Positions 9,910 to 55,600 of a stretch of DNA of 64,000 bases are shown here, piece after piece. Every line of letters starts with the position of its first letter. The first letter of the stretch is position 1. Both the position numbers and the translations under genes were made by a program. The stretch comes from an uncultured delta proteobacterium (GTDB lineage Bacteria > Myxococcota > UBA727 > VGSZ01). Where the stretch lies: NCBI GenBank assembly GCA_963775425.1, contig CAVZJB010000008.1, positions 128,001 to 192,000 of the forward strand. Direction: 5' to 3'. The notes beneath the pieces were generated by a model. That model did not search any database. It worked only from the letters and a program-made list of their open reading frames with translations, and had not been told where the DNA came from.

Positions 9910-10824
9910 TCAGCCCGCCGGGCAGACCGACGTGTCCGTGGGGCACGCGGTCGCCGTCGCAGGGTCCGCGCCGCAGAAGCTGAGCCCCGGCACGCACGTG
10001 GCGCCGGGCGTGGCGATGAAGCAGCCGGTGTTGGTGGCGCTGGTGGTGACGTCGCAGGTGCCACCGACGTCGGCGCAGTCGAAGAAGAAGGGCTGGCCGT
10101 CGCTGGCGCCGACAGTGACGAAGCAGCCGAGCAGGAAGCGGCTGCCCGAGCAGGCGCCGGCCGCGGTGACCTGGCCGTCGGCGCAGGCGAATCCGGCGCT
10201 CACGCACGCGGTGCCGTTGCCGGCGCTGTTCACCGCGCAGCCCGCCTGGAAGCCCGCGCAGGGCACGAGGACGTTCTGGGTGGTGTCGTTCGGGTCCTGG
10301 AACAGGCAGGACTGGCCGGCGGGGCGCAGGCAGTCCACGCCGTACTCGGGCGTCACCTGGCCGCACTGGGTGCCCGCGGGGAAGCCGAGCGCGCTGTCCG
10401 AGCAGTCCTGGGTCTGGAGCGTGTTCGTCGTCGTGTCGCAGAACTCCACGGTGTTGCCCGTGCACTGGCCCTGCACCGTGACGGTGCCGCAGCCCGGCGG
10501 CTCGCCTTCGCCTTCGCCCTCGCCCTCGCCGGGGCCGACGTCGCCCTCGCCCTCGCCCTCGCCCTCGCCGGGGTTCACGTCGCCTTCGCCCTCGCCTTCG
10601 CCGGTGTTGCTGTCGCGGACGCAGTCCCCGTCCTGGCAGACGTGGCCGACGTCGCAGTCGCGATCGTTCTCACACTCGACGCACGCGCCGTCGACGCAGA
10701 TCTTGCTCCCGTGGCAGTCGCCGTCGGAGGAGCAGCCGGCGCCGCCGAGGTTCAACAGATCGAGGCTGCACGCAGGGAGGACGCAGACGCCGGCGACGGC
10801 GGCGAGGACGAGAGAGGTCTTCAT
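9910..10824 (-). CDS. Cys-rich acidic lipoprotein with internal (GE)n tracts, paralog 1
   Basis: Signal peptide + LPAC lipobox; N-terminal CxxDxDC repeats; three GEGEGEGEG blocks; shared Cys-rich domain. Confidence 0.85.
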   Translation of the reverse strand: MKTSLVLAAVAGVCVLPACSLDLLNLGGAGCSSDGDCHGSKICVDGACVECENDRDCDVGHVCQDGDCVRDSNTGEGEGEGDVNPGEGEGEGEGDVGPGEGEGEGEGEPPGCGTVTVQGQCTGNTVEFCDTTTNTLQTQDCSDSALGFPAGTQCGQVTPEYGVDCLRPAGQSCLFQDPNDTTQNVLVPCAGFQAGCAVNSAGNGTACVSAGFACADGQVTAAGACSGSRFLLGCFVTVGASDGQPFFFDCADVGGTCDVTTSATNTGCFIATPGATCVPGLSFCGADPATATACPTDTSVCPAG

Positions 10825-10914
10825 GCGCGCTGTGTCGCACGCTCGTCGACGAAGGAAACCGGGCGCTGTGAGAGCTGGATCACTCGAAGAGCGGCTCCCT
10901 CGCGGCGGCGCGCT

Positions 10915-11664
10915 TCACTCGCCTTCGCCTTCGCCCTCGCCCTCGCCCTCGCCTTCGCCTTCGCCTTCGCCTTCGCTCGGGCACACGCCGCTGGCGGGGC
11001 AGCCGACGACGTCGTTTTCGCGGCCGCACAGCGTGAGCCCGGGCGTGCACGCCGCCCCGAACGGCGAGACGCAGCCGACGCCGGAGACGCAGGCGGCGTC
11101 GAAGGCGTCGCAGTCCTGGAACAGCGGCTGCCCGTCGACGGAGCCCGAGCCGGCCACGATCCCGTGGCACTCGAGCACGTACGAGGCGTTGTTTTGCCCG
11201 GAGCAGCCGAGGGTGTCCGCCGCGCCGCAGGTGAAGCTCCCCTCGACGCACTCGAAGGTCCCGACGCCCGTGTGCTCGCAGCCCGCGTCCGCGCCCTGGC
11301 AGAAGCCGAAGAAGCCGTCGTTGCCGCTGCCGACGGCGCAGCTCCCGCCCGCGGGCAGCGCACAATCGGCGCCCCAATTTCCGTTGATCTCCTGGCACCG
11401 AGCGCCGGTGCCCGTGTAGTCGGCGAGGTCGCCGGTGCCGCGGCAGTTCTGGGTGACGAGGACCTCGGCGAGGCACACCTGCACGACGTCGCCGGTGCAC
11501 GCCCCCTGCGTGGTGACGTCGCCGCACGTGGGCGCGGGGTCGCCCTCGCCCTCGCCCTCGCCTTCGCCCTCACCCTCCCCTTCGCCCTCGCCTTCGCCGG
11601 GGCAAGCCCCACCGGCGATGACGAGCGCGGCGACAAGACCACACGACAGGAAACCACGAAGCAT
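10915..11664 (-). CDS. Cys-rich acidic lipoprotein with N- and C-terminal (GE)n tracts, paralog 2
   Basis: MLRGFLSCGLVAALVIAGGAC then PGEGEG; shared Cys domain; ends in (GE)n. Confidence 0.85.
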   Translation of the reverse strand: MLRGFLSCGLVAALVIAGGACPGEGEGEGEGEGEGEGEGEGDPAPTCGDVTTQGACTGDVVQVCLAEVLVTQNCRGTGDLADYTGTGARCQEINGNWGADCALPAGGSCAVGSGNDGFFGFCQGADAGCEHTGVGTFECVEGSFTCGAADTLGCSGQNNASYVLECHGIVAGSGSVDGQPLFQDCDAFDAACVSGVGCVSPFGAACTPGLTLCGRENDVVGCPASGVCPSEGEGEGEGEGEGEGEGEGE

Positions 11665-11773
11665 CTGCGACACCCCCGGCCCGCGAGAGACGCAGTCTAG
11701 CGCGCCCGAAAACCGATTGCCGACCGCCCGGGCGCTCGCTGAACGCCCGCGGCGAAGGACGGCCCGGACAAGC

Positions 11774-11795
11774 AAAGGGCCCCTCGCGGGGCCCT
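11774..11795 (-). terminator. Probable intrinsic terminator after paralog 3
   Basis: AGGGCCCC-GCGA-GGGGCCCT-TT on the minus strand. Confidence 0.55.
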
Positions 11796-11820
11796 GTGCG
11801 CTCACGAATGCGTCAGGCGC

Positions 11821-12612
11821 TCACTCGCCTTCGCCTTCGCCTTCACCCTCGCCTTCGCCTTCGCCCTCGCCCTCGCCCTCGCCTTCGCCTTCGCCCTCAC
11901 CGGCGCTGTCGGGGCAGGTGCCGGTGTCGGGGCAGGCCACGGCGTCGTTGGCGTCGGTGCCGCAGGCGGTGACGCCAGGCGTGCAGGTCTGGGTGAAGGG
12001 CACGAGGCAGCCGACGGTGTCCGTGCAGGTGGAGCCGGCGAAGTCCGCGCAGTCCACGAGGAAGGGCATGCCGGTGCCGGCGTTGGTGGTCACGAAGCAG
12101 CCGAGCTGGAACGTGGTGCCGATGCAGGTGCCGTCATCGGTCTGCGTGCAGGCCGTAGCGTTGCCGACGCAGCTGAAGCTCGCGTCAGCGCCCTGCTTGC
12201 AGCCGGCGGTGTCGCCGCCCTCGCACAGGAGGTCGACCTCGTTGTCCGCGCCGCCGTTGAGCACGCAGGTGTCGCCGGCGGGCGCCACGCAGTCGACGCC
12301 GTAGTCGGGGTTCACTTCCTGGCAGGTGGCCTGGCTGCCGGTGAGGTCACCCTCGTCGCCGGTGCCCTGGCAGTCCTGCACGACGAGGCTGCCCTGGAGG
12401 CAGAACTTGAGGGTGTTGCCCTCGCAGACGCCGGCGAGGTCGATGGTGCCGCAGCCCGTGTCGCCTTCGCCCTCGCCCTCGCCCTCACCTTCGCCTTCGC
12501 CTTCGCCTTCGCCTTCGCCTTCGCCCTCCGAGGGCGGACAACCGGTCGCCGTAAAGATCGCGAGCCCGAAGGTGGTGGTCAGAAGAGCGGTCAAAAGTGC
12601 AGGGCGAAGCAT
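11821..12612 (-). CDS. Cys-rich acidic lipoprotein with N- and C-terminal (GE)n tracts, paralog 3
   Basis: MLRPALL...FTATGC lipobox; GGAGG RBS; shared Cys domain; ends in (GE)n. Confidence 0.87.
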   Translation of the reverse strand: MLRPALLTALLTTTFGLAIFTATGCPPSEGEGEGEGEGEGEGEGEGEGEGDTGCGTIDLAGVCEGNTLKFCLQGSLVVQDCQGTGDEGDLTGSQATCQEVNPDYGVDCVAPAGDTCVLNGGADNEVDLLCEGGDTAGCKQGADASFSCVGNATACTQTDDGTCIGTTFQLGCFVTTNAGTGMPFLVDCADFAGSTCTDTVGCLVPFTQTCTPGVTACGTDANDAVACPDTGTCPDSAGEGEGEGEGEGEGEGEGEGEGEGEGE

Positions 12613-12695
12613 GTGGGAGGCCTCCAATGGAGGGCTTCCTAACCCGCGATCTGGCGTTCGTCACGGACAATTCGCCCCGGGTCGGTCAAAAGACC

Positions 12696-13406
12696 TTACT
12701 CCCCTTCGCCCTCTCCTTCGCCTTCGCCCTCGCCTTCGCCTTCGCCGGCGGCGGCGGGGCAGGCGCCGTCGGCGGGGCAGGCGGTCGGGGCGTCGGGGTC
12801 GCCGCACTGGGTGAAGCCCGGGGTGCACGGCGCCTCGGGCTCCGCGATGCAGCCCCCGGGGGCCTGGCAGCTGGCGCCGAAGGAGGCGCAGTCGATGAGC
12901 GTGGGCTGCCCGGGGGTGTCGCCGGTGTCGCCGAGGCAGGTCTTCACGGCGCGATCGCCGATGCACTGGAAGTCGCTGGTGCAGCCCTCGTTGATCTGGA
13001 GGCAGAAGCCCGCGGTCGTCGACGTGATGACGCACGCGAAGCCGTCGCCGGCGCAGGGCAGGGCGCCGTCGGCGGCGTCGAAGCAGGAGGCGTCGGTGGG
13101 GACGCCGCAGTCGACGCCGTGGGCGTCGTTGACCACGAAGCACTGGGCGTCGTCGCGGACCGCGGCGCAGTCGAACTCGATGACGCCGCCGTCGGCGCAG
13201 AAGGACCCCGACGTCGCCGAGGTGCAGCTCCCTTGATCGGTCACGGCGCCGCAGGTGCCGTCGCCCTCGCCCTCGCCCTCGCCCTCGCCGGCGTCGCCCT
13301 CGCCCTCGCCCTCGCCGGCGTCGCCCTCGCCCTCGCCCTCGCCGCCTGGGGTCGGTGGGCACGCGGCGGCGAGCATGGTGACGACGAGGACGCAGAGGAG
13401 GCGCAT
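12696..13406 (-). CDS. Cys-rich acidic lipoprotein with N- and C-terminal (GE)n tracts, paralog 4
   Basis: MRLLCVLVVTMLAAAC lipobox; GEGEGEGDA blocks; TAACCT hexamer 7 nt upstream. Confidence 0.85.
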   Translation of the reverse strand: MRLLCVLVVTMLAAACPPTPGGEGEGEGDAGEGEGEGDAGEGEGEGEGDGTCGAVTDQGSCTSATSGSFCADGGVIEFDCAAVRDDAQCFVVNDAHGVDCGVPTDASCFDAADGALPCAGDGFACVITSTTAGFCLQINEGCTSDFQCIGDRAVKTCLGDTGDTPGQPTLIDCASFGASCQAPGGCIAEPEAPCTPGFTQCGDPDAPTACPADGACPAAAGEGEGEGEGEGEGEGE

Positions 13407-15676: not shown

Positions 15677-15726
15677 GCGGATGACCCGGGCGTTCGTCGC
15701 CGGACCCGGCGACCCGATCGAGCGCG

Positions 15727-15836
15727 GCCGCTCCCTCCGGTCGCCGATCAGCGCGCGGCCGCTCCCTCCGGTCGCCGATCAGCGCCGCTCCCTCCGGTCG
15801 CCGATCGAGCGCGGCCGCTCCCTCCGGTCGCCGATC
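15727..15836. repeat. Four tandem copies of GCCGCTCCCTCCGGTCGCCGATC
   Basis: Copies start at 15727, 15758, 15784 and 15814 with 3-8-nt linkers, between convergent stop codons. Confidence 0.9.
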
Positions 15837-15841
15837 AGCGC

Positions 15842-18464: not shown

Positions 18465-19010
18465 GTCGGGAGACCCGGCCGACGGCCGCCCTACGTGCCG
18501 ATGCAGCTCGCGACGCGGGGCACGTCGACGATGCACGTTCGCGACGTCCCGTAGAACGGGGCTCGTCCCCCGCGTCGGGAGACCCGGCCGACGCGATGCA
18601 GCTCGCGACGTCGTTCGCGACGTCCCGTAGGGCGGGGGCTCGTCCCCCGCGTCGCGAGACCCCTCCGACGCGATGCAGCTCGCGACGTCGCTCGCGACGA
18701 CCCGTAGGGCGGGGGCTCGTCCCCCGCGTGGGGAGACCCGGCCGACGCGATGCAGCTCGCGACGTCGTTCGCGACGACCCGTAGGGCGGGGGCTCGTCCC
18801 CCGCGTCGCGAGACCCGGCCGACGCGATGCAGCTCGCGACGTCGTTCGCGACGACCCGTAGGGCGGGGGCTCGTCCCCCGCGTGGGGAGACCCGGCCGAC
18901 GCGATGCAGCTCGCAACGTCGCTCGCGACGACCCGTAGGGCGGGGGCTCGTCCCCCGCGTCGCGAGACCCGGCCGACGCGATGCAGCTCGCGACGTCGTT
19001 CGCGACGACA
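18465..19010 (+). repeat. Tandem array of ~77-bp units, each containing a GTAG-type REP palindrome
   Basis: GTAGGGCGGGGGCTCGTCCCCCGC at 18627, 18704, 18781, 18858 and 18935, plus a variant at 18551. Confidence 0.92.
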
Positions 19011-19052
19011 CGTGAGCCGATATCGCGCGCCGCTCGCGGGCGCGTCGCGGCT

Positions 19053-20207: not shown

Positions 20208-20693
20208 AAGGCTGACGAAAAACAAGGCTCGTAGCAGCACTCGGCGAAGCCGCGCGGAGTACGCGTCGGCGCCCAAGAACCGCTGCAGGTTGTGAGGGAA
20301 CGGCGGGTCCGAGCGGTGTTGTGATCCCGCTATCGGCGCACGTGGCGGCTTCGTGCGGGTCGTGTGCGCGCCGACGTGCCTCGATGCGACGTCGGTGCGG
20401 ACTTCAGGCGGTGAGCTTCGCGAGGTTCTGCAGCAGGTTGAAGGCCACGGCCTCGGCGCTGCCTGTGAGCCCGTCGAGCTCGAGCCCGCCGATCACGCGG
20501 TCGAGTTGCGAAGTGCTTGGGCGCTCGGAATCAGCGAAGGCTAGACAACGTCGCCACCGCCGGAGCGGAAAGGAGCGGAGAGCTCGGCGCCCCGGCGCTC
20601 AACTCGGCGCGCGTCTTCGTCGCCGAGCTCGGAGCTCCTTTCCGCTCCGCCGTGTGGCCGTAGCACCGGCCCCTTCCGGGTGGCTCGGATCAA
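20208..20693 (-). mobile_element. Decayed IS1182-like element, copy 1 (most of the transposase deleted)
   Basis: Colinear with 50030-50777 apart from internal deletions; end AGGCTGACGAAAAA; transposase residues AVAFNLL and GLELDGLT remain. Confidence 0.7.
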
Positions 20694-20766
20694 CAGTCAG
20701 CGCTCGGTCGCCACCGCCGCTCAGCGCGCGGTTGGCACATGGGTGCCGGGCGGCTACACCGGCCCG

Positions 20767-22203
20767 ATGCGCCCTCGGCTCCTCGTCGCCGCCCCCGACG
20801 GCACCGTCTACGAGCACCCCACGCTCGAGATGGCCATCGACAACGGCCAGGACGTCTCGCGGGCCGGACGCCGCGAGCTGATCCCCATCCCCGAGGGCTG
20901 GGACCTCATGGCCATGCCGGGCACGCGCCCCATCGGCTACGACCGCAGCGCGGCGCGCTTCGTCACCGTCGACAGCTTCAGCGTCGACGGCCGCACCTTC
21001 GAGCCCTGGGCCGTCGCCGTGCACCCGCCGCCAGGCTACGTGCGCGCGCACCACCCCGCCGCCGAATACACCGACGCCACGCACCCCGACAAAAAGCTGC
21101 GCGCGCTGGTGCCGCCGCCGTCGCAGCCCGACCCCAGCGCGCGCGTCTCGAAGCGCACGAAGCGCAGGTCGCTCCCGGTCCTCGAGGGCGGCGACGACAA
21201 CGCGCGCCCGGGGCTCCCGCTGTGGGCGTACACGGCCGTGGGCATGACGGAGAAGGGCCCGGTGGCGGCGCTGTTCCTCGCCGACGAGACCACGCGCTGG
21301 GCGCCGTCTTTGTACTACCAGCCCGACCTGAAGGAGCGCATCGCCGCGCGCCTCGCCGAGGACCCCGACAACCAGGTGCTCGGGCAGCTCGCGCAGTGCG
21401 CCGGCGAGTACCTCTGCTGCTGCGCCCAGAACGTCTTCTACGAGCGCTGGGAGGGCGCGGTCCCGGTGGCGCCCGCGTGCACGGCGGCGTGCCTCGGGTG
21501 CTTGAGCAAGGACCCCGCGTGGGCGACGCCGACGCCGCAGAAGCGCCTGAAGTTCCAGCCCACGCCCGAGGAGATCGGCCGGGTGATCGCGCATCACCTC
21601 GAGCGCGCGCCGGAGCCGATGATGAGCTTCGGCCAGGGCTGCGAGGGCGAGCCCACCATGAACGGGCCCGTCATCATCGAGTCCGTGCGGCGCGCCCGCG
21701 AGCGGACCACGCGCGGCGTCATCAACATCAACACCAACGGCTCGCGCCCGGAGACCGTGCGCGCGTGCGCGCGCGCGGGGGCGTCGGCGCTGCGGGTGTC
21801 CCTCAACACCTTCGATCGCGAGATGTACACGGCCTACTACCGGCCCGGCGACTACGACTTCGACGACGTGGTGAAGACGCTCTACGTCGGGCGGGACGAG
21901 GGCATGCACGTCTCCATCAACCTGCTCATCTGGCCGGGGTGGTCCGATCGCATGGCCGAGGTCGACGCCATCTCGAAGATCGTCGAGGACGGCGCGCTGC
22001 ACATGATCCAGCTCCGGAACCTGTGCGTGGACCCGGGCTACTACCGCACGGTGTTGCCCAAGGAGCGCGGCATCCTCCTCGGGATGCGCGGCTTCGTCGA
22101 CGAGCTGCACCGCCGCCACGAAAAGCTCCGCTTCGGCACCTTCAACCCGCGCCTGGCCGCGGAGTGGTACGACAGCGTCCCCGCGTTCCCCGGCCGGCTG
22201 TGA
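20767..22203 (+). CDS. Radical SAM protein of unknown function
   Basis: CxxxCxxC motif (CTAACLGC), SFGQGCEGEP and NTNGS motifs. Confidence 0.9.
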   Translation: MRPRLLVAAPDGTVYEHPTLEMAIDNGQDVSRAGRRELIPIPEGWDLMAMPGTRPIGYDRSAARFVTVDSFSVDGRTFEPWAVAVHPPPGYVRAHHPAAEYTDATHPDKKLRALVPPPSQPDPSARVSKRTKRRSLPVLEGGDDNARPGLPLWAYTAVGMTEKGPVAALFLADETTRWAPSLYYQPDLKERIAARLAEDPDNQVLGQLAQCAGEYLCCCAQNVFYERWEGAVPVAPACTAACLGCLSKDPAWATPTPQKRLKFQPTPEEIGRVIAHHLERAPEPMMSFGQGCEGEPTMNGPVIIESVRRARERTTRGVININTNGSRPETVRACARAGASALRVSLNTFDREMYTAYYRPGDYDFDDVVKTLYVGRDEGMHVSINLLIWPGWSDRMAEVDAISKIVEDGALHMIQLRNLCVDPGYYRTVLPKERGILLGMRGFVDELHRRHEKLRFGTFNPRLAAEWYDSVPAFPGRL

Positions 22204-22213
22204 TGATCCCTGC

Positions 22214-22513
22214 TCACCGGCGCTCGCGCACCATGTGGAAGAAGCGCAGACACAGGCGCTTGCCGCGCGCGTGATCGCCGGCGTCGACGACGTCGCAGGC
22301 GTGCGCGATGTCGAGGATGGCGCTCATGCGGCCCGCCTTGGTGGCGAGCGTCTCTTTGTCGTCGTGGGCGAGCGCGCGGACGATGGCGTCGGACGTGGCG
22401 CGCAGCTCGTCGGCGACGAAGCCGTAGGTCGGGGGGAGATCGGTCGCGGCGTCGCCGGCGAGCGCGAGGAGCTCCCGGGAGGTGTCCCGCACGTCTTGGT
22501 CCATGGCGATCAT
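22214..22513 (-). CDS. Small hypothetical protein
   Basis: ~99-aa ORF filling the gap after a terminator; coding-like codon usage. Confidence 0.5.
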   Translation of the reverse strand: MIAMDQDVRDTSRELLALAGDAATDLPPTYGFVADELRATSDAIVRALAHDDKETLATKAGRMSAILDIAHACDVVDAGDHARGKRLCLRFFHMVRERR

Positions 22514-22628
22514 GCGCCCGGTGAAGCAGGTCGCATGCCACTGTGCGCGGCGCACGCGGGGCCGCTTCCGTGCGCGCCTCGATCGCCCCGGGGATCGGGC
22601 GCGGGCGCGGGTCGTTCCGTCTGGTGAC

Positions 22629-22658
22629 AAAAAAAGGGCCAGCCACCTGGGCCGGCCC
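22629..22658 (-). terminator. Intrinsic terminator
   Basis: GGGCCGGCC-loop-GGCTGGCCC-TTTTTTT on the minus strand, downstream of 22708-23163. Confidence 0.8.
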
Positions 22659-22707
22659 CCCGTGAGCCCCGGCGACCTGCGCCGGGGCTCGTGAGCTCAT
22701 GCGCGTC

Positions 22708-23163
22708 TCAGCCGAACGTGCCGCCGGCGCAGCGGCCGGGGTCCGCGCAGGTGACGCCGGTGTCGCCGCAGAAGGTGACGCTGGTGCCGTCGGTGTCGGT
22801 GGCGCTGACCTCGGTGAGGGTGGCGTCGATGTCCGCGCAGGCGGGGTCGCCGGCGGCCTGGATGGTCACGCAGTGGTTGTTGCCGAGGTCCGCGGGGATG
22901 CAGGCGTCGCCGGCGTCGCAGTCGGCGGTGGCGGTGCACGGGGCGTTGGCGCCGATGTCCGTCGCCTGGCACTGGCCGTCGTTGTCGCACTCGGCGGAGG
23001 TACAGCTCTGGGTGGTGTCGTCGCAGATCGGCGTATCGCCGCTGCAGTCCGCATCGCCGTTGGCGCTGCAGTCGACGACGTTGCTACCGCCGTCGCAGCC
23101 GACTCCCACGACGAAGAGGGCGACGGGGATGGCGGCGAGAGAAAGCAATGCAAACTTCTTCAT
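22708..23163 (-). CDS. Small Cys-rich acidic lipoprotein (no GE tract)
   Basis: AGGAG RBS; MKKFALLSLAAIPVALFVVGVGC lipobox; CxxDxxC repeats. Confidence 0.85.
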   Translation of the reverse strand: MKKFALLSLAAIPVALFVVGVGCDGGSNVVDCSANGDADCSGDTPICDDTTQSCTSAECDNDGQCQATDIGANAPCTATADCDAGDACIPADLGNNHCVTIQAAGDPACADIDATLTEVSATDTDGTSVTFCGDTGVTCADPGRCAGGTFG

Positions 23164-23340
23164 GGAACCACTCCTGGTGTCTCGGGCGGGGGGACTCTGA
23201 CCCGGACGGTTCGACGAACGCAAGCGTCTTGGCATTCGCCCGGCTCGTCCGCCCGACCCGGGGTCTGAAGACGGCCCGAGCGCCTGCGCCGCGCTTTCGC
23301 GCACGACGAGACGCTCGGGACCGACGATGCGGGCAGTCGG

Positions 23341-23625
23341 CTATTCGCCTTCGCCTTCGCCTTCGCCTTCTCCTTCTCCTTCTCCTTCGCCTTCGCCTTC
23401 GCCTTCGCCTTCGCCTTCGCCCTCTCCTTCTCCTTCGCCTTCGCCTTCGCCCTCTCCTTCGCCTTCACCCTCGCCTTCGCCTTCACCCTCGCCTTCGCCT
23501 TCGCCCTCGCCTTCGCCTTCGCCTTCGCCCTCGCCTTCGCCTTCGCCTTCGCAGCCCACGACGGTGGTCGTCAGACCGGTGACGAGCAATCCCGCGAAGA
23601 CTGCCGCCAATGCCACACGCATCAT
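23341..23625 (-). CDS. Lipoprotein consisting only of a signal peptide and Cys-Glu-(Gly-Glu)34
   Basis: AGGAGG RBS; MMRVALAAVFAGLLVTGLTTTVVGC followed by 69 alternating E/G codons (23344-23550) and TAG. Confidence 0.8.
   Translation of the reverse strand: MMRVALAAVFAGLLVTGLTTTVVGCEGEGEGEGEGEGEGEGEGEGEGEGEGEGEGEGEGEGEGEGEGEGEGEGEGEGEGEGEGEGEGEGEGEGE
23344..23550 (-). repeat. Hexanucleotide repeat (GGN GAR) encoding poly-(Gly-Glu)
   Basis: 207 bp of GAA/GAG alternating with GGC/GGT/GGA. Confidence 0.95.
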
Positions 23626-23733
23626 GATGGTTTCCTCCTGGGCGCCGTCTGTCGACGCCGCACAACCGTACCCGATGCCGTTCTGATTTCGCGAGATTCT
23701 CAGATCGTGGGAAATTGTCCCGACTCGCCTCAC

Positions 23734-23766
23734 AAAAAGAGACGGCCCCCGTCGCCGGGGGCCGTC
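23734..23766 (-). terminator. Intrinsic terminator
   Basis: GACGGCCCCCG-GCGA-CGGGGGCCGTC-TCTTTTT on the minus strand, after 23800-24729. Confidence 0.8.
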
Positions 23767-23799
23767 AATCACGACACGAATGTCGCGGTTTTGCTCAGG

Positions 23800-24729
23800 T
23801 CACTCGCACACGTACGACGTGCCGTCGAACGAGGTCGTGCCGTTGCAGTCACCCGCGGCGTTGCAGCCACAGATGTGATCGTTGCCGCAGACGTCGCCGC
23901 CGGCGGAGCCGGTGCACTCGTCGTCAGAGGCGCAGCCGCAGCTGCCGTTGTCGGTGTTGCACACCGAGGGCGCGGTGCCGGTGGCACCACACTCGCCGTC
24001 GTCGGTGCAGCCGCACGTGTGCGTCGCCGTGTAGCAGGTGGTCTGCGCGCCGGTCGCACAATCCGCGTCGGCGAGGCACTGCACGCACTGCCCGGAGGAC
24101 GTGTCGCACTTCAGCGTGCCGCAGTCGGCGTCGGTGGTGCACGCCGGGCTGTTGATCTCACAGAGGCTGTCCGCGTTGCAGGTGGAGTCCACGAAGGTGC
24201 AGACGTCGACGTCGGCCCCCGTGATGTCCTTCAGCGTGGTCAGGGTGCCTGCCGCGCAGGCGCCCGCGGTCGCCTCGAGGCTGTCACAACGGCCCTGGGC
24301 TCCGCTGGCGCCCGTCTGGTCGAGGTCGATGCAGTGCGTGTTCGGCGTGGTGCAATCCGCGTTCGCGGTGCACGCCGTGGTGCCCACGAAGCGCGCGGCA
24401 CAATCGTTGTTTCCGCCGCAGGTGTCCGCGGCGCAGCGGCTCGCGGTCGTGTCGCAGTGGAAGAAGACGTTGGAGCCGCCGATCTCGCAGTCGGCGTCGG
24501 CCGTGCACGACTCCTGGCAGATGGCCTCGCCTTCGCCTTCGCCTTCGCCCTCTCCTTCGCCTTCGCCTTCGCCCTCGCCCTCACCCTCGCCTTCGCCTTC
24601 GCCTTCGCCTTCGCCCTCGCCTTCGCCTTCGCCTTCACCTTCGCCTTCGCCTTCGCAGCCCGTGAAGGCCGTGGTCAGACCGATGACGAACACACTCGCC
24701 AGGATTCCCGTCAATGCAACGCGCAACAT
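23800..24729 (-). CDS. Cys-rich acidic lipoprotein with N-terminal Glu-(Gly-Glu)21 linker
   Basis: AAGGAGG RBS; MLRVALTGILASVFVIGLTTAFTGC; GE tract 24526-24654; many CxxDxDC repeats. Confidence 0.88.
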   Translation of the reverse strand: MLRVALTGILASVFVIGLTTAFTGCEGEGEGEGEGEGEGEGEGEGEGEGEGEGEGEGEGEGEGEGEGEAICQESCTADADCEIGGSNVFFHCDTTASRCAADTCGGNNDCAARFVGTTACTANADCTTPNTHCIDLDQTGASGAQGRCDSLEATAGACAAGTLTTLKDITGADVDVCTFVDSTCNADSLCEINSPACTTDADCGTLKCDTSSGQCVQCLADADCATGAQTTCYTATHTCGCTDDGECGATGTAPSVCNTDNGSCGCASDDECTGSAGGDVCGNDHICGCNAAGDCNGTTSFDGTSYVCE

Positions 24730-24843
24730 ATGTCCTCCTTGCGCCAGGGTCGGCGCACGCCCGGGACTGTACCCGAGGTCGGGCCCGCGCAAGAAGATTC
24801 TCATACCGAGACGGAGACGCGCGTCCGCTATGGTGGAGGGCGC

Positions 24844-25308
24844 ATGGCGCGCGATCCCGTTTCGATGTTCTGTTTCTCGCTCGTGCTCGTGAAGCGCGGG
24901 CAGCGCTTCCTCCTCGTGCACGAGCGGAAGCATGGGCAGGGGTGGTACCTGCCCGCGGGGGGCGTTGAGCCCGGCGAGACGTTCGCCGAGGCCGCGCTGC
25001 GCGAGACGCGGGAGGAGGCCGGGATCGACATCGAGCTCGAGGGCGTCCTCAAGATCCAGCACACGCCCATCCAAATCACGTCCGGCGCCGGCGGCGCGCG
25101 CATCCGCGTGTTCTTCCTCGCGCGCCCCCGCGACGACGCGCCGCCCAAGTCCGTCCCCGACGAGCACTCGCTCGAGGCCCGCTGGTTCACCGTCGACGAG
25201 CTCGCCGGCGCTCCCCTGCGCGGCGACGAGGTCGAGCAGTGGATCAAGTACACGCTTCAAGGGCCCGTCGTCGCGCCGCTTTCGATCCTGGCGCGCGAGG
25301 TGCCTTGA
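24844..25308 (+). CDS. NUDIX hydrolase
   Basis: Nudix box GGVEPGETFAEAALRETREEAG. Confidence 0.92.
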   Translation: MARDPVSMFCFSLVLVKRGQRFLLVHERKHGQGWYLPAGGVEPGETFAEAALRETREEAGIDIELEGVLKIQHTPIQITSGAGGARIRVFFLARPRDDAPPKSVPDEHSLEARWFTVDELAGAPLRGDEVEQWIKYTLQGPVVAPLSILAREVP

Positions 25309-52609: not shown

Positions 52610-55600
52610 TCAGCGGGTGGACACCGCGCCGCCGCCGACGCTGACGTGGACGACCGCGACGGCGCTCGCGCCGGCCTTGTCCTTGACGCGGATCCGGAAG
52701 CTGTCCTCGCCGCGCGCATCGGTGCCGGCGGTGAACGTGAAGGCGCCGGTCCGCGGGTCGTCGAGCTTCACCGTGCCGTGGCGCGGGGGCACGGCGACCG
52801 AGAACGTGAGCTCGTCGCCCGCGTCGACGTCGCTGGCGGCGATCCTGCCGCTCACGGCCTTGCCCGGCGCCGCGCGCACCGCCGTGTCTTTCACGACGGG
52901 CGCGTCGTTCACGTTCTCGACAGTGACGGTGATCTTCCCCGGCGCCCCCGGCCCGCTCGGGTCCGACGGGATCACCTTCACCTCGAGCGTGCCGGCGAAG
53001 TCCTTGGCAGGCGCCACCCGCAGGACGCTGCCTGCGAGCGACACGTCGGCGGTGCCCTTCTTCACGCTCGCCTTGTCGAGCGTGAGCGTCACCGGGTCGC
53101 CGTCCTTGTCGTGCGCCGACAGCGCCAGCGTCACCGGCCGCTCCTCGAGCGTCTTGAGCGACGCGTCGTCGACGGTGGGCGGGTCGTTCCGCGGCGCCAC
53201 CAGCACCGGCAGCACGGCGCGCACGCGGTTCTTTCCGTCCGACGCCTCCAACACGAGCCGGTCCTCCCCGTTTTCGTCGGGCTTCGGCGTGAAGAGCAGG
53301 GTCTTGCCGTCGCTCTCCACCTCGGCCGCACCGATGCGCGCCTGCGTCACCACGCGGAACGTCACGTCGTCGCCGTCGGGGTCGACCGCCGTGAGCGTCA
53401 GGCTCCCGTGCTCATCCTCCGCCGTCTCGAGCGGTCGCAGGTCCACCACGGGCGCGTCGGGCTCGGGTGCCACCGCGGCCTTCACGGTCGCGTCCGCCTC
53501 GAGGAAGCCGTCGCTCACCGCGACGACGAACGAGTCCTCGCCGTTCCAATCCGCCGCCGGCGTGTAGTGGAGAGTGCCGTCGTCTGCGTCGACGTCGGCG
53601 TCGCCGTGCTGCGGCGGCTTCTTTACGCGAAAGGTGAGCACGTCCTTGTCGACGTCCGACGCCGTCACGCGGCTGCTCGCGGTGCGATCTTCCCGGGTGC
53701 TCACCGAGACGTCCTTGGTCACCGGCGCGTCGTTCACCGCCGCCACCGTCAGCTTCACGGCGCCCGTGTCGCGCAGCTTCCCGTCGCTCACCTCGAAGCG
53801 AAAGCCGTCCTCGCCGTTTGTGTTCGCCCGCGGCGTGTACGTGTACGCCCCCGACTGCGCGTCGAGCTCGATGGTGCCCGAGCGCGGTTGCTGCACGACG
53901 CGCCAGGTGAGCGTGTCCTTGTCGACGTCGCTGCCGCCGACGCTGTCCTTGATGGGCGTGTCTTCCTTGCCGGAGGCGTCGTGCGCCACCGCCACCGGCG
54001 CGTCGTTCACCGGCGCGATGGCCACGCTCACCGGCACTTGCGTCGTGGCGGTGCCGTCGCTGACGGCGACCATGAAGTCGTCGTCGCCGTTTTCGTCCTT
54101 GTTCGGGGTGTACGTGAACCGGCCGCTCTCGGCGTCGATGGTCGCCTTGCCCTTCTTGGGCGCGTTGGCCACCGACCAGGTGAGCTTGTCCTTGTCGACG
54201 TCGGAGGCGGGGACGCTGCCCTTCTCGGCGCGGTCCTCTGTGACCGAGAGCTTCACGGCCTTCACGTCCGGCGCGTCGTTCACCGCGGCCACGGTGAGCT
54301 TCACGGCGCCGCGGTCGCGGAGCTTGCCGTCGCTGACCTCGAAGCGAAAGCTGTCGTCGCCGTTTTCGTTCTCGCGCGGCGTATACGTGTACGCGCCGCT
54401 CTGCGCGTCGAGCTCGAGCTTGCCGAAGCGCGGCGGCTGCACCACGCGGAAGGTGAGGGTGTCCTTGTCGACGTCGCTGCCGCCGACGCTGTCCTTGATG
54501 GGCGTGTCTTCCTTGCCGGACGCGTCGTGGGCGGAGGCCACGGGCGCGTCGTTCACCGGCGCGATGGCCACGCTCACCACGCCGCTGGTGGTGCCGCCGG
54601 CGCCGTCACTGACCGCGACCACGAAGCTGTCCTCGCCGTTTTCGTCCTTGTTGGGCGTGTAGGTGAAGCGGCCCGTGGCGGCGTCGATCTTCACGGTGCC
54701 CTTCGCGGGCGGCTTGGCCTCCGACCAGGTGAGCTTGTCCTTGTCGACGTCGGAGGCGGGGACGCTGCCGCTCTCCGCGCGGTCTTCGGTGACGGCCAGC
54801 TTCACCGCCTTCACCTCGGGCGCGTCGTTCACGGCGGCCACCGAGAGCTTGACGGCGCCGCCGTCGCGGAGCTTGCCGTCGCTGACCTCGAAGCGAAAGC
54901 CGTCGTCCCCGTTGAAATTCTCGCGCGGCGTGTACGTGTACGCGCCGCTCTGCGCGTCGAGCTCGAGCTTGCCGGAGCGGGGCTGCTGGACCACGCGGAA
55001 GGTGAGGGTGTCCTTGTCGACGTCGCTGCCGCCGACGCTGCCCTTGATGGGCTCGTCCTCCTTGCCGGAGGCGTCGTGGGCGGCGGCCACGGGTGCGTCG
55101 TTCACCGCGGCGATGCTCACGCTCACCTTGGCCTCGACGTCGGCGCTGCCGTCGGAGACCGTGACGCCGAAGCTGTCGTCGCCGTTTTCGTTCGGGTTGG
55201 GCGTATAGACGAAGGCACCCTTCACCTCGTCCACCTCGACCTTCCCCTTCTTGGACAGCGTGCCGAGCGTGTAGCTCAGCTTGTCCTTGTCGATGTCCTC
55301 GCCGCGCACCACGCCGCGCACGGCGCTGTCCTCCCGCGTCGACACCGCCACGTCGTGGGTGGTGGGCGCGTCGTTCTCGGGCTTCACGGTGATCTTCGCC
55401 TCGCCCTCGGCCTTGGCCTTGCCGTCGCTGACGCGGAACGAGAAGGCGTCGTCGCCGTTTTCGTTCGGCCTGGGCGTGTAGCGGAACGTGCCGTCGGCCT
55501 TGAGATCGACGCCGCCGCGCCTGGGCGCCTTCACCAGCGAGAACGTGAGGGCGTCTTTGTCGACGTCGCTCGCCTTGAGCTTGCCGTCGAGGGGCTTGTC

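Follow-up and report, generated by a model that had tools for sequence, protein, structure and literature searches.

Tethers between the lipid anchor and a folded domain are known from several bacterial lipoproteins, including those with LpoB/RcsF-type linkers and those of Borrelia. Mollicutes have size-variable repeat lipoproteins (Mycoplasma Vlp/Vsa type), which have been proposed to form a length-dependent surface shield. A preprint describes disordered N-terminal linkers in outer-membrane lipoproteins of Escherichia coli (bioRxiv 10.1101/2021.01.05.425367). In humans, the Glu-Gly region of RPGR ORF15 is purine-rich, repetitive, hard to sequence, and unstable, and serves as a glutamylation substrate, as reported (PMC10706286, PMC13052805, PMC9897430). 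The literature that we searched on EGEGEG/GEGEGE, Glu-Gly repeats, and disordered lipoprotein linkers contained no bacterial (GE)n lipoprotein. The present study concerns a 64,000-nt stretch of DNA (hereafter, the window) from an uncultured delta proteobacterium of the Myxococcota, located at positions 128,001 to 192,000 of contig CAVZJB010000008.1 (G000:C8:128001-192000; genome G000, 8.26 Mb, 72% GC, 18 contigs). It contains ORF B, an open reading frame (ORF) of 285 nt (23625..23341, minus strand; 94 codons and TAG), the predicted product of which is a lipoprotein signal followed only by a Gly-Glu (GE) repeat.

Judging from the sequence, ORF B is a real, intact, lineage-specific, and domain-less member of the family represented by its upstream neighbor, gene A. 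We think it somewhat probable that ORF B is expressed but young, and that its product is a cargo-less tether lipoprotein with at most generic physical effects. The product reads MMRVALAAVFAGLLVTGLTTTVVGC followed by E(GE)34 and the TAG stop. The tract directly after the Cys is exactly 69 residues long (35 Glu and 34 Gly). The initial annotation had described an AGGAGG ribosome-binding site (RBS), a signal peptide, a VVGC lipobox, and an E(GE)34 tract running into the stop, all of which were borne out when the ORF was re-read. From 5' to 3', the features of ORF B are as follows.

23668..23702, minus strand: promoter-like bipartite motif TGAGAATCT-N18-TCGGGTAC upstream of ORF B, putative in function
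23634..23639, minus strand: Shine-Dalgarno sequence AGGAGG, 8 nt before the first ATG of ORF B
23554..23625, minus strand: signal peptide, residues 1-24, with an MMR n-region, a hydrophobic core, and the lipobox residues VVG
23551..23553, minus strand: codon of the lipobox Cys (residue 25), which is predicted to become the acylated N-terminal residue after processing
23344..23550, minus strand: E(GE)34 tract of 69 codons, built from the hexanucleotide repeat (GAAGGC)n
23341..23343, minus strand: TAG stop codon, directly 3' of the last Glu codon

The AGGAGG motif occurs genome-wide at a density of 0.47 per kb per strand, and a start at the second Met would place the lipobox Cys at residue 24. 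ORF B resembles the known lipoprotein linkers in placing an unstructured segment after a putatively acylated Cys, and 55 candidates in this genome have a GE segment in that position. The GE linkers differ in being perfect dipeptide repeats with a hexanucleotide microsatellite as their coding sequence, in reaching 99 aa, and in being strongly anionic; ORF B further differs in that nothing follows the linker. Similar to the Vlp/Vsa proteins, ORF B has a lipoprotein signal, a mature part made of tandem repeats only, and a slippage-prone coding repeat. However, it has no sequence relation to them (none appeared among the matches read), its repeat unit is 2 aa, its host is diderm and GC-rich, and no phase-variable promoter element was seen, the 120 nt upstream of ORF B containing no homopolymer run. 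RPGR ORF15 also has an acidic disordered Glu-Gly tract; however, it is eukaryotic, cytoplasmic or ciliary, and not lipid-anchored. The analogy extends only to the idea of a post-translational modification, and a TTLL-like enzyme was not sought here.

The signal of ORF B was evaluated using a PROSITE PS51257-type rule for substrates of Sec and signal peptidase II (Sec/SPII), and signal and anchor classes in the present study were assigned by regex heuristics. A positive charge is present within the first 7 residues (Arg3), the core VALAAVFAGLLVTGLTTTVV has no D, E, K, or R, and the lipobox V-V-G-C matches [LVI..][ASTVI..][GAS]-C with its Cys (Cys25) inside the permitted range of 15-35. The host has Lgt (PF01790, 2 matches over the cut-off), LspA (PF01252, 2), and Lnt (TIGR00546, 1). 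A single-sequence AlphaFold2 model of ORF B consisted of a helix at residues 3-24, and the remainder was coil with a block predicted local distance difference test score of 42-56. Two domain assignments were rejected as compositional matches to the GE tract only: PF22807 (TrAA12-like; 29.3 bits against a cut-off of 30.9) and NF033849 (serine-rich protein; 23.4 bits against a cut-off of 650).

The tract of ORF B is a microsatellite with a 6-nt period, 34.8 copies, and 89% matches in Tandem Repeats Finder. Its codons are GAA 29, GAG 6, GGC 26, GGA 6, and GGT 2, which confirms the mixture of GAA/GAG and GGC/GGT/GGA noted earlier. All 14 codon variants are synonymous. GC content at third codon positions (GC3) is 0.46, and GAA accounts for 83% of the Glu codons. 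The repeat is open in all three frames, and the opposite strand carries an (SP)n ORF at 23327..23686 (plus strand). The GE frame is the one that occurs with signal peptides and domains across the genome.

The family relations of ORF B are best seen from its flanks, which contain the following features.

23800..24729, minus strand: gene A, a full-length paralog of ORF B with a signal, a lipobox, an E(GE)21 tether, and a 241-aa domain with 34 Cys
23731..23766, minus strand: terminator-like hairpin and T run, predicted to end the gene A transcript (hairpin 23766..23741, 11 pairs, 10 of them G-C)
23213..23237, minus strand: promoter-like block of gene C, GAATGC-N..-CGCTTGCG-N..-CGTC, kept upstream of three orthologs in genus g3
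22708..23163, minus strand: gene C, a Cys-rich lipoprotein without a GE tract, the ancestral neighbor of the Nudix gene
22633..22661, minus strand: terminator-like hairpin located 3' of gene C, with no further terminator on this strand between it and that of gene A

ORF B, gene A, and two homologs of gene A, P0018 and P0041, have the signal type M[LM]R..L....GLT...GC in common, and genes A and B also have the RBS in common. Over 25 positions, the signal of ORF B is identical to that of gene A at 13, of P0018 at 12, and of P0041 at 12; the likeness to gene A was, thus, correctly described in the initial annotation as real but diverged. The homologs of gene A (P0041, P0018, P0100, and G001:C1072) come from Myxococcota-like metagenome-assembled genomes (MAGs) and have the signal type, lipobox, and GE tether of ORF B. 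P0041 is a full-length protein of 331 aa that ends in ...YVCE, as gene A does, with a domain 38% identical to that of gene A. P0100 carries the domain at 67% identity, and G001:C1072 is a tandem pair of full-length homologs. The domain of gene A itself gave a weak match to TIGR04201 (Myxo_Cys_RPT), below the cut-off. In all of the homologs read, namely, gene A, P0041, P0018, P0100, and both G001:C1072 genes, the Cys-rich domain follows the tract. ORF B has the GE tract directly after the lipobox; however, it retains zero residues of the Cys-rich domain, which is approximately 240 aa long and ends in ...VCE. The initial annotation had associated a Cys-rich domain after the tract at orthologous loci with a truncated pseudogene. 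The homologs come close to this picture in their domain order, whereas they are not strict orthologs of ORF B. ORF B keeps the 5' module of the family, consisting of the promoter-like motif, strong RBS, Sec/SPII signal, lipobox Cys, and GE tether.

Within the order, a homolog of gene A was otherwise found in G001 only. A metagenome scan with the gene A domain yielded 2 weak partial matches and no close relative of the locus. Another paralog of gene A is split at G000:C15:3905-7761 (L022 and L023). Its N-terminal piece (signal, short GE tract, and first Cys repeats) ends at approximately 7372, its C-terminal piece starts at approximately 4453, and the approximately 2.9 kb of other sequence between them is possibly a mobile element.

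Since a terminator lies upstream and the bipartite motif is common only to gene A, ORF B probably has its own transcription start, as far as sequence signals can indicate. The TGAGAATCT and TCGGGTAC blocks recur upstream of gene A (24769-24803) with identical spacing, while the flanks have otherwise diverged, and a relaxed regex of the motif found only these 2 matches on both strands of the genome. A widespread regulon promoter was accordingly rejected for this motif. The hairpin at 23766..23741 and its T run fit the terminator that the initial annotation had placed at 23734-23766 between genes A and B, and its proposal of a separate transcript for ORF B gains support from the terminator together with the motif. 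A sigma-70 scan of 22500-25000 gave 0 promoter-like sites. ORF B has no terminator of its own and none lies in the interval between ORF B and gene C. The block upstream of gene C has the form GAAT(G/C)C-N7-CGCTTGC-N3-CGTC there and upstream of its g3 orthologs (L002, L004, and L013); as a guess, it may be a promoter of the extracytoplasmic function (ECF) type.

GE tracts are abundant in this genome. We counted 278 pure tracts of at least 12 aa in 244 stop-to-stop frames. By heuristic criteria, a lipobox Cys is followed by a tract within 15 aa in 55 frames, and the last tract lies within 75 aa before an anchor-like C-terminus (Cys, hydrophobic segment, and Arg-rich end) in 18 frames; because of these two sets, we regard (GE)n as first of all an anchor-proximal spacer. 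In the latter 18 ORFs (e.g. on C4, C5, C13, C16, C17, and C18), a GE tract is located 35-73 aa ahead of a Cys...hydrophobic...RRRR end, which presumably resembles the MYXO-CTERM sorting signals. (GE)n is also a frequent C-terminal tail: 18 tracts end on a Glu codon that is immediately followed by a stop (TAG 8, TGA 9, and TAA 1). Tracts reach 49 units and, as a lipoprotein linker, 99 aa. Four tandem paralogous Cys-rich lipoproteins are encoded within the window at 9910-13400 (minus strand), and three of the four are "sandwich" genes, in which a GE tether at the N-terminus is combined with a GE tail that runs into the stop at the C-terminus; 11821-12612 is an example. Domains similar to theirs end in GE tails in G004 and G006. 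The suggestion in the initial annotation that the tract may be more than a linker is in keeping with these 18 tails and their recurrence on homologs in other genera.

At the peptide level, GE tracts are pure, while their synonymous codons are scrambled. The commonest hexamer makes up a median of 46% of the units per tract, and the amino acid repeat is perfect nonetheless. Among 8293 tract codons, GAA accounted for 52% of Glu codons versus 8.9% in long ordinary ORFs; the corresponding values for Gly codons were 17.5% versus 4.2% for GGA and 3.5% versus 17.5% for GGG. This bias may reflect a DNA-level repeat unit or the avoidance of G runs. The tract of ORF B consists of GAAGGC at 65% of its units, placing it at the 83rd percentile of homogeneity among 130 tracts of at least 12 units. 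Codon mixing had been read in the initial annotation as a sign of age; however, this tract is more homogeneous than most, and its mixed codons do not indicate age.

Mini-proteins in which a 32-aa Asp/Cys motif lies between a signal and a GE tail of 76-90 aa occur in G000 (C4:390182-390595, L043), G002 (C89, L039), and G005 (C122, L058). The motif ..CDN..DDD.DG..DC.D.DC..EC.. is 69% identical between G000 and G002 (E 2e-4). The flanks of G000:C4 were not syntenic with those of G002:C89 or G005:C122 by blastn/tblastx, and orthology is not claimed. Long (GE)n linkers were also present inside large proteins (L074, L075, L077, and L079) on Hydrogenedentota and Nitrospirales MAG contigs with 62-64% GC.

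ORF B is absent from the corresponding sites of related genomes. In all three genomes of the nearest genus, g3 (G002, G004, and G006), a ThyX-Nudix pair is directly followed by the gene C ortholog, and both gene A and ORF B are missing. Because the Nudix gene directly adjoins the gene C ortholog there, the comparison of these junctions indicates that genes A and B were either gained in the G000 lineage or lost from genus g3. G000 has two further GE-only ORFs, C5:293788-294069 and C18:218661-218918, with canonical but unrelated lipoprotein signals, and the tracts of all three GE-only ORFs are long (26-34 units). The C5 ORF has no obvious RBS and lies within an insertion of approximately 1.3 kb that is flanked by genes for a histidine kinase and an acyltransferase; the gap between these genes is 27-28 nt in 3/3 g3 genomes. 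The C18 ORF is missing 3' of the hydrolase orthologs in G006, G002, and G003. Its ATG at C18:218661 is located 2 nt after the TGA of a 402-aa lipoprotein hydrolase gene, with GGAG within the end of that gene, and this arrangement suggests translational coupling to the hydrolase gene.

Searches for GE-only counterparts elsewhere returned none. A tract-stop pattern, which required a Cys within 12 codons of the tract, found 32 distinct ends in 6 of 10 relatives, the fragmented assemblies of which break at tracts; the 31 that were read are all tails of larger proteins, and the 32nd (G004:C339:5502-5570), judged from its matched string, is not GE-only. This was the check for signal-C-(EG)n-stop ORFs in related genomes proposed in the initial annotation, and it yielded no counterpart. 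A Cys-(EG)8 pattern had 7 loci over 185,579 species genomes, none of them GE-only. A homologous-protein search with ORF B had no match at E<=1e-3 and 4 at E<=10, none GE-only, and the best score in the ESM Atlas was 0.82, below the useful level. A phmmer search of 1.84 billion representatives had 1398 matches; among the best 150, which were listed, we read 35 (all 27 of up to 165 aa and 8 N-terminal matches), and none was GE-only. This library held no match at or below 1e-30, ORF B itself being absent. Neither of the tested ATG-start forms of ORF B was present in a collection of 15 billion proteins, in which the exact gene C protein was found. The blanks in the protein searches carry little weight because ORF B itself is absent from the library. 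Gene callers seem to miss GE-only ORFs, and protein databases may under-report them. The description of ORF B as an old, maintained gene in the initial annotation is, thus, not supported, given its absence with gene A from the syntenic junction in g3 and the lack of a GE-only counterpart in the relatives and public collections searched.

We propose that ORF B most likely arose as a tandem paralog of gene A that lost its domain through a tract-mediated rearrangement. The approximately 280 near-identical (GAAGGC)n tracts would be substrates for recombination and slippage. The domain may have been removed when an N-terminal tether tract recombined, or slipped, with an existing tract-stop tail, either within one sandwich gene or between genes, and sandwich genes that could serve as substrates are present in the genome. 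Microhomology may also have contributed: the terminal ...TGC GAG stop of the gene A family resembles the tract unit GGCGAG and could account for a deletion that reaches the stop cleanly. When the 55 tether candidates are ordered by the remainder outside the GE tract, the three GE-only ORFs have 0, 3, and 12 aa and the next candidate has 38, and all three GE-only ORFs stop directly after the tract. Stumps of varying length would be expected from random truncation, and we estimate that only a few percent of random junctions would place a stop in frame at once. These small remainders and immediate stops argue for a tract-specific mechanism rather than random truncation.

Under the same proposal, ORF B would be transcribed from its own promoter, probably reading into gene C, and translated from the ATG at 23625. 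The product would be exported by Sec and processed at VVG|C by Lgt, LspA, and Lnt. The mature form would be a triacylated Cys with a disordered chain of 69 residues, a charge of approximately -35, and a contour length of approximately 25 nm. If it has a function, this would be a generic physical one, for instance that of a polyanionic brush, a spacer, or a cation sink, with no conserved dedicated activity. ORF B itself is probably a minor, young gene.

Several observations weigh against this explanation. The mechanism of origin is deduced from sequence patterns, and no donor of the tract-stop junction was present among the sequences examined; furthermore, no member of the gene A family with a C-terminal GE tail was found. 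A remnant of the gene A domain was sought 3' of ORF B and rejected, the local alignment score of 23 being reached by 171 of 500 dinucleotide shuffles. The signal of ORF B is as far from that of gene A as is the signal of P0041, the domain of which is so distant from that of gene A; the split between A and B may, therefore, be old, which would favor maintenance by selection. The 14 synonymous-only variants fit selection at the peptide level, although variants are also copied by slippage, and such selection may have acted before the domain was lost. The occurrence of three independent GE-only lipoprotein ORFs in one genome could reflect selection and not just a high birth rate. The comparison genomes all belong to other genera, g3 being the nearest. 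We also searched public sequencing runs for the locus; the best share was 0.10, and none contained the ORF B locus. Contigs from candidate runs gave 18-42-nt pieces of unrelated contigs, with repeats skipped, which says nothing on expression either way.

Selection for the product itself is the first alternative. ORF B would then be a selected gene for a lipid-anchored, ribosomally made polyanion that acts by itself in the envelope, either buffering divalent cations, forming a hydrated charge brush or shield, or serving as a spacer in the periplasm, and the GE-only ORFs would form a small functional class. We regard this as possible but doubtful. The three GE-only ORFs have canonical signals and clean tract-stop ends; the 18 terminal tails, their recurrence on homologs in other genera, and the GE-tailed mini-protein with its conserved motif in G000 and G002 are also as expected for a useful tract. 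The same applies to the exclusively synonymous variants, the strong RBS with a promoter-like footprint, and the divergence of the ORF B signal, which suggests some age. However, no GE-only ORF stands at the syntenic sites of the three g3 genomes, none was found among the 31 of 32 tract-stop ends read in six relatives, the 7 Cys-(EG)8 loci, or the 35 phmmer matches read among the best 150 listed, and the C5 ORF lacks an obvious RBS. We further speculate, with rather little confidence, that GE-only lipoproteins are selected polyelectrolyte brushes, the length of which is tuned by hexanucleotide slippage and which arise repeatedly through tether-tail recombination, forming a polyanionic envelope layer of this Myxococcota-like lineage together with the GE tails. 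If true, this layer would buffer cations, provide hydration, or protect against cationic peptides, phages, or predator contact, and would correspond, in a diderm, to the Vlp/Vsa shield of mycoplasmas.

It is improbable that ORF B is a silent relic, that is, the dead 5' stump of a gene A-like paralog without useful transcription or translation. The family domain is missing, ORF B is lineage-specific, neither of its tested ATG-start forms is in the collection of 15 billion proteins, which includes gene C, and the library of 1.84 billion has no near-identical copy. Its low GC3 and GAA-rich Glu codons are also unlike the rest of the genome. However, tracts in general are rich in GAA, even where the gene is obviously functional, and the start codon, AGGAGG, charged n-region, uninterrupted hydrophobic core, and lipobox are intact despite the marked divergence from gene A. 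The promoter-like blocks likewise stand out from diverged flanks.

We consider an assembly artifact to be very unlikely, in which the true gene would have the order signal-GE-domain-GE-stop, or two loci would have been collapsed or mis-joined across the 207-nt repeat. Long low-complexity repeats at approximately 280 loci are a known assembly hazard, contigs of the relatives often begin or end in tracts, and the three GE-only ORFs all have long tracts. However, none of the 18 contigs of G000 ends in a tract, tracts of up to 49 units were spanned, and the ancestral Nudix...gene C neighborhood is kept on both flanks, arguing against a chimeric join. A single gene comprising ORF B and gene C, with the TAG read through or a recent nonsense mutation, is scarcely credible: the TAG is in frame with gene C across 59 stop-free sense codons, but such an open stretch is expected about once in eight by chance at 72% GC (an estimate from base composition), GC3 in the spacer is 0.69 versus 0.86-0.93 in genes A and C, the spacer contains the conserved promoter-like block and RBS of gene C, and gene C has its own signal peptide and orthologs in g3 that stand alone.

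The genome-wide GE-tether system is more notable than ORF B. Throughout a bacterial family, a perfect (Gly-Glu)n microsatellite recurs hundreds of times in each genome and serves as an anchor tether, an interdomain linker, and a C-terminal tail; no account of such a system appeared in the literature searched. GE tracts offer a natural system in which to investigate the repeat-mediated shuffling of signal peptides, tethers, and domains, as well as the birth of small envelope proteins and the role that a tether without cargo plays in the envelope of a diderm. GE-only products, if functional, would represent a new kind of ribosomally made, lipid-anchored polyanion.

Elsewhere in the window, a radical-SAM gene at 20680-22203 was considered as a maturase and rejected, its matches being generic Radical_SAM matches only, far below the NCBIfam cut-offs. 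Its orthologs in G003:C309 (L005) and G007:C727 (L011) adjoin the gene of another lipoprotein, in which a Cys-rich domain is accompanied by both a GE tether and a GE tract. The window also contains a 77-nt tandem repeat at 18536-19013 (6.2 copies, 94% matches), a repeat with a 273-nt period at 53720-55108 (5.1 copies, 66% matches), and a 31-nt tandem repeat at 15714-15841 (4.3 copies).

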